A stretch of 24,000 nt of DNA from Phreatobacter stygius (GCF_005144885.1 NZ_CP039690.1:6226873-6250872), one strand, 5' to 3'; shown: positions 12,084-17,322, counted from the stretch's first letter. Notes: generated from the letters alone by a model not told the origin. Made by a program: numbers and translations.

Positions 12084-13184
12084 ATGACCCTACTCGTGGC
12101 CGACACTGCGCTGATGCGCCGGGCCGATCTGTCCGACATCGCCCGGCTCGCCCTGGCGTTCGTCGATGGCGGCTCCCAGTGGTTCGACTGGGCGGCGCTG
12201 GAATCCTCGACCACCTACAATTTTCCCGACGAGACCGCGCTGGTGAGCGGCGTGCAGCAAGGCCTTCACGCCGCGCGCCTGGCCTTGCTGCCGAACCTGA
12301 GACTGGCGGTGAGCCCGGTGAAGCTGATGACGCTGGGCGCCGCCGACCTCAGGCTGCTGCAGCGCATCGAGCACGGCGACAAGAGCGCCAAGGCGGCGGT
12401 GCAGCTCAAGCGCATCCTCGCCGACCATGCCCTGCTGACCGAGGAGGACCTGGCGCCGACCGCCAGCTTCCTGGCCGATCTCGGCGTCGGCGACGCTCCG
12501 GTCTTCCAGTTCCTCGGCTACGAGGGGCGGATGGCGATCTACGACCTGCTCCATTTGCCCGACGACAAGACGCCGCCCGGCATCGAATTGCAGAAGGAGG
12601 CCGCGACCTTTGCGAGGGCTCAGGGCCACACGCCGTCCGAATTCGCCGACTATTTCAAGTTCTTCCTGCAGTACACCGGGAAGCTTGGCGCGCGCGCCGC
12701 CTCGCCGGAGGATCGCCAGCTTCTGTGCGAGACCGCGCTCGCCGCCCTGGGGCCGCGGCTGTTCGACCATCTCGATTGCCCACAGGTCGGCGGGCTGGTC
12801 GCCCCGGCCGAAGTGGCCGAGGCGGTCAAGGACCGGCTCTCGTCCGGCCGCCGCATCGGCTTCACCCGGCTGTCGCTCGGCGCCCAGCAGATCATCGAGA
12901 ACACGACTTTCGAGGACAATGGCGCCGATGATCCCGACGTCTTCGTCAGCGGTTACGTCAGCGCCGCCCAGAACCTCTTGCGCGCCGTGCCGGTGACCTT
13001 CGGCCTGATGGCGCAGGACGGCGCCAGCTGCATCTTTCCGATCGAAGGCAGCGACCACGAGGCGGAGCTTCAGCTGACCTCGGCGGGCCTGATCACCCTG
13101 AACGGCTTCCGACGCAAACCCAAACGCAAGCCGGCAACGGGCGCGGGTCACGGCCGCGCCGAAGCCTCCATGGAGAAAGTCTAA
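12084..13184 (+). CDS. hypothetical protein (366 aa), no family recognised; reb-cluster accessory gene
   Basis: ATG at 12084 with GGAG at 12070-12073, 40 nt after reb copy 7. GC3 bias is strong in this frame, and the antisense 353-aa ORF is a shadow. The basic C-terminal tail is RRKPKRKPATG. Its stop overlaps the next start (TAATG at 13182-13186). Confidence 0.8.
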   Translation: MTLLVADTALMRRADLSDIARLALAFVDGGSQWFDWAALESSTTYNFPDETALVSGVQQGLHAARLALLPNLRLAVSPVKLMTLGAADLRLLQRIEHGDKSAKAAVQLKRILADHALLTEEDLAPTASFLADLGVGDAPVFQFLGYEGRMAIYDLLHLPDDKTPPGIELQKEAATFARAQGHTPSEFADYFKFFLQYTGKLGARAASPEDRQLLCETALAALGPRLFDHLDCPQVGGLVAPAEVAEAVKDRLSSGRRIGFTRLSLGAQQIIENTTFEDNGADDPDVFVSGYVSAAQNLLRAVPVTFGLMAQDGASCIFPIEGSDHEAELQLTSAGLITLNGFRRKPKRKPATGAGHGRAEASMEKV

Positions 13185-13581
13185 TGCCCAAGCTCCGCAA
13201 GCCGAGACTGGCCCGTCGCGCCCCGATCGAGCGGGTGATCCCCGTCAGCAGCCTGCCGCCGGAGGAGATCGCCGAACTCGCCCAGATCCGGGCGCGCGAG
13301 GCCGAGGCGGTCGCGACCGAAGCCGTGCGCGAGGCCTCCCTGGGGGAGGCCGGCTGGTGCCGGGTGAGCGCTCGCGCGGCGAACGCGCCGAGGCGATCGC
13401 CGAGCGCGCGGTCCATCACACGGATCTCACCATCGAGCGGGTGGTCGACCAGGCCGAGGCGATCGCCGAGCGCGCGGTTCATGCCGCCCAGGCCGCCCAG
13501 GAAAAAGCGGTCGACATCGCGCAGCTGAAGGCGACCGAGGCGGTGGCTGCCACCGACCACATCATCGCCCAGACGCAGTAA
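13184..13581 (+). CDS. small Ala/Glu-rich hypothetical protein with an apparent frame break (5' part in frame of 13184, 3' part in frame of 13357-13581)
   Basis: The 5' part MPKLRKPRLARRAPIERVIPVSSLPPEEIAELAQIRAREAEAVATEAVREASLGEAG is protein-like. It then degenerates to an R/S/P-rich string. The -1 frame instead gives ERAEAIAERAVHHTDLTIERVVDQAEAIAERAVHAAQAAQEKAVDIAQLKATEAVAATDHIIAQTQ and stops at 13581. A G5 run at 13342-13346 lies at the junction. Confidence 0.55.
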
Positions 13582-16600: not shown

Positions 16601-17322
16601 CACGCGACCGCAACGCGATCCGCGCCGAGATCAATGACGAGATGACGGTGATCACGCGCGGCGTGACCGGCCTCAGCCACCTGCCGGAGGTGCAGCATTC
16701 CACGCAGGAGGAGATCGCCGGCTATCTCGTGCGCAATCCGGGGGATCTCGACGCCGTCTCGGCCTTCTTCACCTTCTGGGAGATCGGCCAGATCTTCTAC
16801 ACGGCCTATGGCAACAGCCAGACCATCTGGGGGCAGCTGCGGGCGCTCATCTTCTCGACCCTGCCAGGCAATATCGGTCCGGCGGAACGCGCCATCCTCG
16901 GTTATGTGCCGGCACAGTTTGCCAATTTCAACCGCGACCAGGTGCAGGCCATGGTCACGGCGCGAGCCGTGCAGATCCTGACCGCGCCGCAATACCAGAT
17001 AGAGCGCCCGCCGCCTGCCAACGCGACGTTCCAGCAGCTCTGGCTGCATTTCAACCCGTACCGCTGCAATGTCCTGGCGCTGTTCACCGGGCTTGCGCGC
17101 TGCCCGACGCCGTTCACGGTCTATGATTCCGGCGACCAGAGCCTTACCCTGGACACCGACCTGTCGGCCGCGCCGGTGCCGGCGCCGGTGGCCGCGCGCA
17201 TCAATGTGGTGCACCACATGTCGTCGCAGGACGTCGACGAGGTTCTCGACATCCTGCAGAGCCAGGCAGGCCAGGCGGTGGTCCAGCAACTCGATCCGCA
17301 GGTCAACTACCTGCAGCAGTAG
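13663..17322 (+). CDS. 1219-aa multidomain protein of unknown family, with a Pol-beta-type nucleotidyltransferase-like signature and a clan-CD cysteine-peptidase-like His/Cys signature
   Basis: Uninterrupted ORF with strong GC3 bias. Start is GTG 13663 or ATG 13690. FFLKGGRAIKYLEG-x6-NDWDTQIVI (nt 14608-14691) followed by KAELIDVG fits hGG...DxD...E/D. LDLLVLNQDHGG (His codon 16342-16344) and ARILVLDFCVST (Cys codon 16465-16467) are 41 aa apart. The antisense 709-aa ORF is a shadow. Confidence 0.85.
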   Translation: MIQPRREQPMPKRLRPFQVVAPPAKRQHGPATAWSCLRYVAEIAPSMPGQTIALANQRDQALIWKAAAVHPMQALENEYQGIVHDAVRGIVDPDQRKEVESRAMGEFFLFDAGPPRLLGVPRGGEYRGERFPIMEDRLRHARKALRPLAESIQAQADPEDVRRSLLLVLREFDVVLGSFFTIPGSGRWGAPILDTAIREFAGLDRRIRRAANWQQFEAAWKQLDTGSAALEETFEKSVSAVQMFYAIEGFYLFRLLVRYRIESSEIIRSGDATAASKQLTKLIANGHPWLSTWLRDKLLELNALMQIVDPSGNTLFFLKGGRAIKYLEGQPQTGENDWDTQIVINPNLPAAQWYQLFQDIQNAVLLALQGFKRELYVLMQHEATTFQDELDTVALPAPVVVDPGPQPLDPDTPVADDEQIAERYRMNCKAELIDVGLPRNDTVEAMEQWAQLNGKLLIAADGMPYPGYLYYINEYLMLVREVFTGLSPSMGKAPARIERLYTILTLPDAGLEAAIQEERHHIPADLLAQSLAAIDQVHDLAVKRALICILSQFCRAYALDLDPNLAACFDGLFAGNLGNAAELAQYPADLNDAIRGYAQWRPAYRLLSDAVGYAQWISKAMSAHFEARGKFMEEQQALIGKFIQSIYAASVFSPGEELEAQIAVTGSLAAFLHADYTKFPRPGELQPVDVASLRIYAYNPEANPAIVMQLVAPLVTEYLDEYPGTFVEVAPMDPAGPLRLFWPSEVEIKPFKYAPLVITIGVARPGIWPLLAYIWDHPTLGLRDLIMEYRGRSAAVEEFGARARLKETTAALTEILLRAENPEPPPAPFGRHLMISSAAMAIGPKADYPASYYQDGTAYKITMTGNREALRQALTLPRSDQDRTLDLLVLNQDHGGIVGGAGQFGQWSAADLQTYLVEPMRRSGLRARILVLDFCVSTALLPTFAALCAEDGVLYSNVYSITEVIMTRDLWGRIKDDLAARDRNAIRAEINDEMTVITRGVTGLSHLPEVQHSTQEEIAGYLVRNPGDLDAVSAFFTFWEIGQIFYTAYGNSQTIWGQLRALIFSTLPGNIGPAERAILGYVPAQFANFNRDQVQAMVTARAVQILTAPQYQIERPPPANATFQQLWLHFNPYRCNVLALFTGLARCPTPFTVYDSGDQSLTLDTDLSAAPVPAPVAARINVVHHMSSQDVDEVLDILQSQAGQAVVQQLDPQVNYLQQ

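Follow-up and report, generated by a model that had tools for sequence, protein, structure and literature searches.

Positions 12,084-17,322 of a 24,000-nucleotide (nt) stretch of the Phreatobacter stygius chromosome (NZ_CP039690.1:6226873-6250872, about 68% G+C over its full length; hereafter, the window) constitute the distal portion of a 'Group 1' reb locus that is present in full. The reb loci are those of R-bodies, which are bacterial protein springs. This segment contains three genes, denoted here geneA, geneB and geneC. The first is HP1.1 of Raymann et al. 2013, for which the linkage to reb genes, but not the function, has already been published; the second is conserved in position rather than in sequence; and the third encodes a protein that, judging from its structural model, combines a Pol-beta-type nucleotidyltransferase with a caspase-like cysteine protease. 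The genes geneA and geneB are constant non-Reb partners in Group 1 loci and are specific to this locus type, whereas geneC is a frequent but optional component of these loci, for which the best explanation, held tentatively, is that it is a cargo or effector enzyme of the R-body locus.

An earlier note on this DNA proposed that the three genes form a maturation or cargo system of the R-body. The cargo half of this proposal fits the distribution of geneC, but its optional occurrence argues against a core maturation role. The present analysis established the order of the genes, their homology, the conservation of the geneC fold and motifs, and the distribution of the family.

Predicted fold and conserved motifs of geneC

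Translation of geneC most likely starts at the ATG at 13690, because the NCBI protein P0001 and the product of the orthologous locus L001, from a Hyphomicrobiales metagenome-assembled genome (MAG; 92% identical), both begin there (MPKRLRPF). With this start, the product comprises 1210 amino acids (aa) and the gap to geneB is 108 nt, rather than the 1219 aa and ~80 nt given in the earlier note. The AlphaFold (AF2) model of residues 11-1210 (predicted local distance difference test score (pLDDT) 93.1, predicted template modeling score (pTM) 0.82; residue numbers used here are the model numbering plus 10) appears to consist, in order, of an N-terminal alpha/beta and helical region, a Pol-beta-type nucleotidyltransferase core, a helical region, a second alpha/beta domain, the caspase-like cysteine protease domain, and a C-terminal helical region.

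Comparison of this model with the PDB using Foldseek retrieved a group of nucleotidyltransferases, namely, Megavirus and Mimivirus poly(A) synthases, Pol beta, Pol mu, GLD-2, a fungal nucleotidyltransferase-like protein, and DncV. The top matches had probabilities of 0.9-0.99 and E-values of 0.03-0.1; DncV (E 1.6, probability 0.11) and the Mimivirus chains matched more weakly. The caspase-like domain matched SAVED-CHAT chains, with probabilities of 0.6-0.9 and E-values of 0.04-0.17. That none of the three genes belongs to a family that can be named, as had been stated before, is correct at the sequence level, where searches of Pfam, NCBIfam and PADLOC returned no match for geneA, geneB or geneC; at the fold level, the geneC model points to a nucleotidyltransferase and a caspase-like cysteine protease.

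The predicted nucleotidyltransferase core (residues ~290-430) shares with the Pol-beta superfamily the hG-G...D-x-D motif and a third acidic residue, all on the expected strands. The hG[GS] turn is found in F-L-K-G311-G312-R-A, between strand 305-310 and a helix; the [DE]x[DE] motif is D328-W-D330, on the next strand; and the third acidic position is represented by E422 and D425, on the long strand 416-429. Alignments of 22, 115 and 12 homologs, including the short Burkholderia and Xanthomonas forms described below, show no substitution at G311/G312, D328/D330 or E422/D425; in the short forms, R313 is replaced by N and K420 by L. The superfamily members considered for comparison were the MenT/AbiEii tRNA nucleotidyltransferases, the DrrA/SidM and GlnE-type protein adenylyltransferases, and the giant-virus poly(A) synthases. 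From this superfamily, geneC differs by the absence of a Pfam, NCBIfam or PDB profile match and by ~800 aa with extra domains; sequence-profile searches of the PDB yielded only noise, whether the query was the entire geneC family or its nucleotidyltransferase core.

In the caspase-like domain (residues ~823-955), the two residues of a putative clan CD-type catalytic dyad, H885 (LLVLNQDH885GG) and C926 (ILVLDFC926), each directly follow a beta-strand. This strand-His-Gly and strand-(Asp-x)-Cys geometry is shared with clan CD peptidases (caspase/CHAT, clostripain C11, and the cysteine protease domain (CPD) of MARTX/TcdB), but geneC has no sequence-profile match to any clan CD family. A Pfam search with 22 geneC homologs (E up to 1) gave no clan CD match, and the only matches fell within the papain-like C-termini of two of these proteins. 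Among 47 homologs with the caspase-like domain, both His and Cys are present in 32, and the remainder, with one exception, have lost the two residues together; such paired retention or loss marks the dyad as a functional one, and both of its residues are intact in the window. In some relatives, a papain-like (C70/C39-like) domain takes the place of the caspase-like one; in Sphingomonas, the C-terminal part of geneC is a separate gene, and many relatives lack it.

No hydrophobic signal sequence was seen by direct reading of the geneC N-terminus, and the product is predicted to be a cytoplasmic two-enzyme protein without a signal peptide. The family is rare, with ~190 clusters: a phmmer search that used residues 225-500 as the query returned 190 cluster representatives out of 1.84 billion.

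Distribution of geneC and the variable slot of Group 1 loci

For the genomic relatives of geneC, flanks of up to 10 kb on each side were retrieved. Among the 42 genome loci with such a relative, 12 contain an adjacent reb array and two more end at a contig edge but keep the regulator gene that adjoins Group 1 loci (see below); in about 25 of the 42, no reb gene is present in the retrieved flanks. In the neighbor-joining tree of the nucleotidyltransferase core, the reb-linked genes, which span 30-87% identity and come from Alphaproteobacteria and one gammaproteobacterium, form their own clades, indicating long co-inheritance. Short forms of 594-630 aa with the same motifs are encoded in the reb loci of Burkholderia pseudomallei, Ralstonia syzygii and Xanthomonas prunicola (hmmsearch E 1e-25 to 1e-27). 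A plasmid of Azospirillum brasilense (L094) encodes a 1707-aa homolog in the same place (6881-12004), and Azospirillum plasmids are one of the original Group 1 examples (PMC3583457). The ~590 extra C-terminal residues of the plasmid-encoded homolog have no Pfam match.

In its long or short form, geneC is present in about half of the Group 1 loci. It is absent from those of Stenotrophomonas maltophilia and Roseateles, within flanks of 8-10 kb, and from seven metagenomic loci with enough downstream sequence (3.5-10 kb). The earlier note had proposed co-occurrence with reb genes as a check for each of the three genes. For geneC, the outcome is divided: the clade that includes the window gene and the distant short forms are reb-linked, but the loci without geneC and the relatives away from reb genes go the other way.

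It could be argued from this distribution that geneC is an unrelated neighbor inserted between the R-body genes and the regulator, given that the majority of the wider family is not located near reb genes and that its slot is variable and sometimes empty. This explanation is decidedly unlikely: the strand, the short gap and the position are kept at 30-45% identity (in Elstera, Novosphingobium, Sphingomonas, Azospirillum and Arenicella), and the divergent short form is placed alike in Burkholderia, Ralstonia and Xanthomonas.

The slot between geneB and the regulator gene is occupied by the long geneC, by the ~600-aa nucleotidyltransferase-only form, by other enzymes, or by nothing. The genes for the other enzymes (Table 1) either lie between geneB and the regulator or mark the corresponding edge of the island. 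NUDIX and Rv2525c-like proteins accompany, rather than replace, the short nucleotidyltransferase in Xanthomonas and Burkholderia. In an Arenicella MAG (L033), an extra ORF (open reading frame) of 489 aa (8187-9656) lies between geneB and the geneC homolog; it contains a CxxC...H pattern and appears HNH-like by eye.

Relatives of geneC in other genomic contexts

In 15 loci without reb genes (L016, L020-L024, L027, L029-L031, L035, L040-L042 and L045), the nucleotidyltransferase gene follows same-strand genes encoding proteins of ~430-500 aa, in most cases as a tandem pair of paralogs. The profile of these partner proteins matched suilysin (E 3.7e-5), listeriolysin O (1.8e-4) and pneumolysin (0.006) in the PDB, and the best 12 matches were all to cholesterol-dependent cytolysins (CDCs); weak matches to Pfam Thiol_cytolys_C were detected as well. 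By these sequence criteria, the partners look like two-component CDC-like pore formers of Proteobacteria and Acidobacteriota. They resemble the two-component CDC-like (CDCL) toxins of Bacteroidota (PMC11169675, PMC7527733) in that they match CDC domain 4 and are paired like CDCL-L and CDCL-S, but differ in their taxa, in being absent from those two papers, and in the presence of a nucleotidyltransferase gene downstream. These loci bear on the window solely as a parallel context for the geneC family, which, being found both with reb arrays and with CDC-like genes, accompanies two membrane-breaching devices. The possibility that the partner proteins are relatives of geneA was considered and rejected (hhalign probability 0.1-0.2).

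A third context was observed in L008, L010, L014, L019 and L046, where a conserved pair of ~120-aa and ~440-aa proteins, neither with a Pfam match, is encoded upstream. The ~440-aa protein ends in ...STHWPVVAQLRW and is reminiscent, by eye only, of the endonuclease/exonuclease/phosphatase fold.

The position of the geneC family directly downstream of two different self-assembling, membrane-attacking systems would also be expected of a maturation or activation enzyme. Such an enzyme would nucleotidylate the Reb (or CDC-like) proteins, and its protease would trim them, controlling polymerization or arming in the producer. An invariant nucleotidyltransferase motif is typical of a dedicated enzyme; the paired CDC-like toxins are pore formers that require cleavage by clan CD C11 proteases for activation (PMC11169675); and R-body assembly in Caedibacter needs non-structural factors (bioRxiv 10.64898/2026.05.21.725848). 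We nevertheless consider maturation rather unlikely as the role of geneC, because about half of the Group 1 loci retain the array together with geneA and geneB but show no nucleotidyltransferase gene in the available flanks; because the short and CDC-linked forms lack the protease domain, which is, moreover, catalytically dead in about a quarter of the long forms; and because the lipase-like and phospholipase C-family enzymes found in the same slot are hard to read as alternative maturases.

GeneC as a candidate payload

Nucleotidyltransferase folds that act as toxins or effectors have precedent. Such precedent is also found in PMC11162799. As a cargo or effector enzyme, geneC would be co-expressed with the R-body, the extension of which would rupture the bacterium and the surrounding membrane and release geneC along with the cell contents. 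The released protein would then modify its targets by nucleotidyl transfer, and the protease domain would process either geneC itself or the target. We infer this cargo or toxin role, including the existence of such substrates, because a payload accounts better than a core maturase for the optional presence of geneC, its modular C-terminus, the lipase-like and phospholipase-family replacements in the slot, the lack of a signal peptide, and the two membrane-breaching contexts.

Several considerations weigh against a payload role. The invariant part of the geneC family is the nucleotidyltransferase, not a delivery domain, and the associations would be explained equally well if geneC served the membrane-breaching partner in a housekeeping capacity, for example by modifying or activating it. 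The activation of CDC-like toxins by C11 proteases (PMC11169675) favors a maturation function for the protease. The fold matches combine high probabilities with weak E-values, no profile links geneC to a solved nucleotidyltransferase or protease, and the His/Cys dyad is lost in about a quarter of the homologs. The variable slot was delineated from ~20 loci, several of which are incomplete, and geneB is broken in the assembly, so that the P. stygius locus may be decaying.

A producer death or lysis switch has to be weighed against the payload role as well. In this scheme, conflict-type nucleotide signaling or target modification would be followed by caspase-like execution, comparable to nucleotide-activated CHAT. 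R-body production is terminal for the producing cell (the 'bright' cells of Caedibacter), the His/Cys dyad behaves as a functional unit, and the Foldseek matches include SAVED-CHAT and, much weaker, DncV. However, PADLOC gave no matches, the neighborhoods are not defense islands, most members of the geneC family have no protease domain at all, and no sensor domain was recognized, which makes a death switch improbable and the least favored of the explanations considered here.

The payload role can be extended to the whole slot between geneB and the regulator, which would then be an exchangeable toxin slot. Its enzymes, that is, the nucleotidyltransferase-protease of the window, the short forms of Burkholderia, Ralstonia and Xanthomonas, the phospholipase C-family enzyme, and the PAF-acetylhydrolase-like lipases, would be toxins delivered by R-bodies upon rupture of the bacterium and the phagosome, and the nucleotidyltransferase family would represent a new toxin class recruited independently by R-bodies and by two-component cytolysin-like pore formers. 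This combined proposal is doubtful.

Constant partners geneA and geneB

As the earlier note had it, geneA encodes 366 aa and starts 40 nt after the end of the preceding 116-aa reb7 gene, at 12043. The Group 1 pattern of Raymann et al. 2013 comprises the proteins HP1.4 (60-80 aa), HP1.3 (~170 aa), HP1.2 (110-120 aa) and HP1.1 (~360 aa), the last of which is without domains (PMC3583457); reb5, reb6, reb7 and geneA match these four in size and order, and geneA, with no known domain, directly follows the HP1.2 counterpart. The gene order of the pattern is that of the window, and the taxa with geneA homologs are likewise shared (Burkholderia, Xanthomonas, Stenotrophomonas and the Azospirillum plasmid), but the small gene after HP1.1, the nucleotidyltransferase family and the adjacent AAA+/AraC regulator are not described in that work. 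The four HP1 proteins were reported to be exclusive to Reb-carrying taxa, and HP1.1 to occur at reb loci only (PMC3583457); a 2026 survey set these non-Reb genes aside (PMC13430693).

We found 112 homologs of geneA, all annotated as 'hypothetical', in Burkholderia, Xanthomonas, Stenotrophomonas, Ralstonia and others. The homologs lie directly 3' of the array in L043, L044, L047-50 and L094, and when metagenomes were scanned with the geneA profile, a reb array preceded the homolog in 16 of the 18 loci for which 1.5 kb or more of upstream sequence was available, so that the proposed co-occurrence with reb genes is borne out for geneA. In apparent contrast to the published statement that HP1.1 is found at reb loci only, three orphan homologs, L051 (Acidovorax sp., 9001-10050), L070 and L081, have no reb gene within the 5-10 kb retrieved on either side.

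The AF2 model of geneA (pLDDT 95, pTM 0.90) comprises an alpha/beta part at the N-terminus, a helical bundle, a sheet toward the C-terminus, and a basic tail. No credible match to this model was found by Foldseek in the PDB or among the viral models of BFVD. The conserved polar residues of geneA form no evident catalytic pattern, and Cys232 is conserved at only 85%.

The start of geneB overlaps the end of geneA in a TAATG at 13182-13186, as previously noted. The ~130-aa gene described there is, however, not a single ORF in this assembly, because the 398 nt between 13184 and 13581 are not a multiple of 3. Sensible coding runs from ATG 13184 in frame 2mod3 to ~13339 and then in frame 1mod3 to the stop at 13581. 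The L001 sequence has one extra base at the break point and an intact geneB ORF of 132 aa; hence, the window gene is split, by sequence comparison, by a 1-nt deletion at ~13337-13345, in a CCC/GGGGG run. This frameshift reflects either a sequencing or assembly error or a genuine pseudogene. Programmed frameshifting was rejected, given the lack of a slippery heptamer and the uninterrupted frame of the close relative.

A small ORF of 87-250 aa immediately follows geneA in every Group 1 locus examined. The encoded proteins typically have a basic N-terminus, often a Pro-rich linker, and an Ala/Glu/Gln-rich helical C-terminus, but their sequence conservation is very weak; accordingly, the linkage of geneB to reb genes holds by position but not by sequence conservation.

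Because geneA and geneB are constant in Group 1 loci and specific to them, they most likely act in the producer cell, as assembly or scaffolding factors of the R-body. Such a role would parallel that of RebC of Caedibacter taeniospiralis, which steers R-body assembly without being incorporated (bioRxiv 10.64898/2026.05.21.725848), and that of AZC_3784 of Azorhizobium, which is essential for R-body formation, whereas AZC_3785 and AZC_3787 are dispensable (PMC5527310). The latter is the same split between core and optional genes as proposed here for geneA and geneB versus geneC, although the Azorhizobium locus is of another synteny type and has a Crp/Fnr regulator (PMC5527310). RebC and geneA/geneB are all non-structural genes inside reb operons, but no sequence relationship between them was found: BLASTP and hidden Markov model (HMM) searches of the six-frame ORFs of at least 40 aa from pKAP298 (NC_005915), among which RebC itself was not singled out, found no relative of geneA, geneB or geneC and matched Reb proteins alone. 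The earlier statement that none of the three resembles Caedibacter RebC agrees with this result.

Organization of the locus, regulator and transcription signals

The anatomy of the locus and the homologies of its genes can be stated with high confidence. The window contains an island of ~10 kb, at 9.1-19.3 kb, flanked by ordinary metabolic and regulator genes. In order, the island consists of four RebB genes, three divergent Reb-like genes, geneA, geneB, geneC, and a convergent gene for an AAA+/AraC regulator (Table 1). The presence of three same-strand genes after the seventh reb copy, as claimed before, is supported by three co-directional ORFs and by plots of G+C content at third codon positions (GC3), which indicate coding at 12084-13184 (0mod3), 13184-~13340 (2mod3), and ~13340-13581 together with 13663/13690-17322 (1mod3).

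The RebB family is defined by a ~70-residue Ala/Thr/Gln-rich helical domain in a small protein. Reb1 to reb5 match the Pfam RebB family, with an E-value of 3e-31 for copy 2; the four canonical copies are mutually more than 60% identical, and their order is kept in more than 12 loci. No Pfam RebB match was obtained for reb7, which corresponds to HP1.2, described in 2013 as lacking a conserved domain (PMC3583457). It was recognized as Reb-like only with a Reb profile iterated on the collected loci, its orthologs being detected, for instance, in L005 at E 2e-13. Neither Pfam RebB (E up to 0.1) nor the iterated Reb HMM matched geneA, geneB or geneC.

Table 1. Features of the Group 1 reb locus in the window and occupants of the variable slot in other loci
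Sequence	Feature	Positions	Strand	Description
Window	reb1-4, canonical RebB	9471-9755, 9829-10098, 10246-10512, 10580-10843	+	Pfam RebB PF11747
Window	reb5 (= HP1.4)	10939-11175	+	78 aa; Pfam RebB E 2.6e-12
Window	reb6 (= HP1.3)	11172-11648	+	158 aa; ATGA overlap with reb5
Window	reb7 (= HP1.2)	11693-12043	+	116 aa; Reb-like by iterated profile
Window	geneA	12084-13184	+	366 aa; HP1.1 family; basic disordered tail RRKPKRKP
Window	geneB	13184-13581	+	Restored product ~132 aa; frameshifted; from frame translations and GC3
Window	geneC	13690-17322	+	1210 aa; NCBI protein P0001 100% identical
Window	geneC, nucleotidyltransferase motifs	K310-G-G-R-A 14617-14631; D328-W-D330 14671-14679; K420-A-E-L-I-D425 14947-14964	+	Predicted from alignments and model
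Window	geneC, putative catalytic dyad, clan CD-type	N-Q-D-H885-G-G 16333-16350; L-D-F-C926-V-S 16456-16473	+	Predicted from model and homologs
Window	Inverted-repeat element	17412-17448 and 17523-17559	.	Arms of 37 nt; an 8-bp GC hairpin within each arm
Window	Regulator, AAA+ 'sigma-54 interaction' and AraC-type helix-turn-helix	17596-19263	-	555 aa; Pfam
L055	Slot	4115-6508		PF04185 phosphoesterase (phospholipase C/acid phosphatase family), E 2.5e-58
L083	Slot	12295-14610		Chlorophyllase/PAF-acetylhydrolase/PETase-like matches (694-772 aa across L083, L066 and L071) and ~125-aa partner
L066	Slot	8267-10348		As in L083
L071	Slot	8969-11182		As in L083
L063	Slot			Two unknown proteins, 571 aa and 611 aa
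L049	Slot	9705-11489		NUDIX and Rv2525c-like glycoside-hydrolase-like
L043	Slot			NUDIX and Rv2525c-like glycoside-hydrolase-like

A search of the + strand from 8800 to 17322 revealed neither a sigma-70-like promoter nor an intrinsic terminator, and it is plausible that the ten genes share a single transcript. In this respect, the earlier note, which saw no terminator before the hairpins that follow 17322, was right; its label of REP (repetitive extragenic palindromic) hairpins is tentative. The two 37-nt arms of this inverted repeat are 86% complementary and 74 nt apart, and the pair occurs once in the window. As it is missing from the shorter orthologous spacer of L001, it resembles an inserted MITE (miniature inverted-repeat transposable element) or REP-like element. 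Located between the convergent geneC and regulator genes, this repeat (17412-17559) is probably a bidirectional terminator.

The regulator gene adjoins nearly every Group 1 reb locus examined, with adjacent orthologs in L001, L003, L004, L006, L007, L009, L033, L036-39, L043, L044, L047-50 and L094. Direct reading of its sequence showed that the GAFTGA (sigma-54-contact) loop segment is missing (...NCAEPLGSPVEWFEKAAGGTVFL...) and that the Walker A motif is degenerate (GEFGTEKP). A search for the sigma-54 promoter consensus gave fewer matches than expected by chance and none upstream of reb1. These sequence features suggest that the protein may be a sigma-54-independent activator. A perfect palindrome, GCAAC-TGAAA-GTTGC, is present at 9400-9414, ~57 nt 5' of the reb1 start codon, and might serve the regulator as an operator or form a hairpin in the 5' untranslated region.

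The 13-mer GGCGGTTCAGCGG occurs exactly twice, 5' of geneA (12059-12071) and 5' of geneC (13620-13632). Its expected count is 0.16, and two copies were reached in 1 of 100 shuffles. Since it is kept only partly in L001, this motif was given no weight.

Implications

R-bodies have been known for more than 70 years, and the toxin presumed to accompany them has never been identified (PMC5773718, PMC13430693). The locus type and geneA were known already; the predicted fold identity of geneC, its occurrence in Group 1 loci in a long and a short form, the variability of the enzyme slot, and the cytolysin-like link are not described in the literature searched. The present analysis draws a line between geneA and geneB, as the likely core partners in assembly, and geneC, as an optional enzyme. 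Together with the other enzymes of the slot, geneC provides concrete, testable toxin candidates in tractable carriers of Group 1 loci, namely, Azospirillum brasilense, Burkholderia, Xanthomonas and Stenotrophomonas. The analysis is also relevant to the engineering of R-bodies as delivery pistons. For the geneC family itself, rare and so far unannotated, the models provide a predicted identity at the fold level, and its genomic contexts tie it to two membrane-breaking systems. If this tie is functional, it would suggest that membrane breakers are generally paired with an enzyme as payload.

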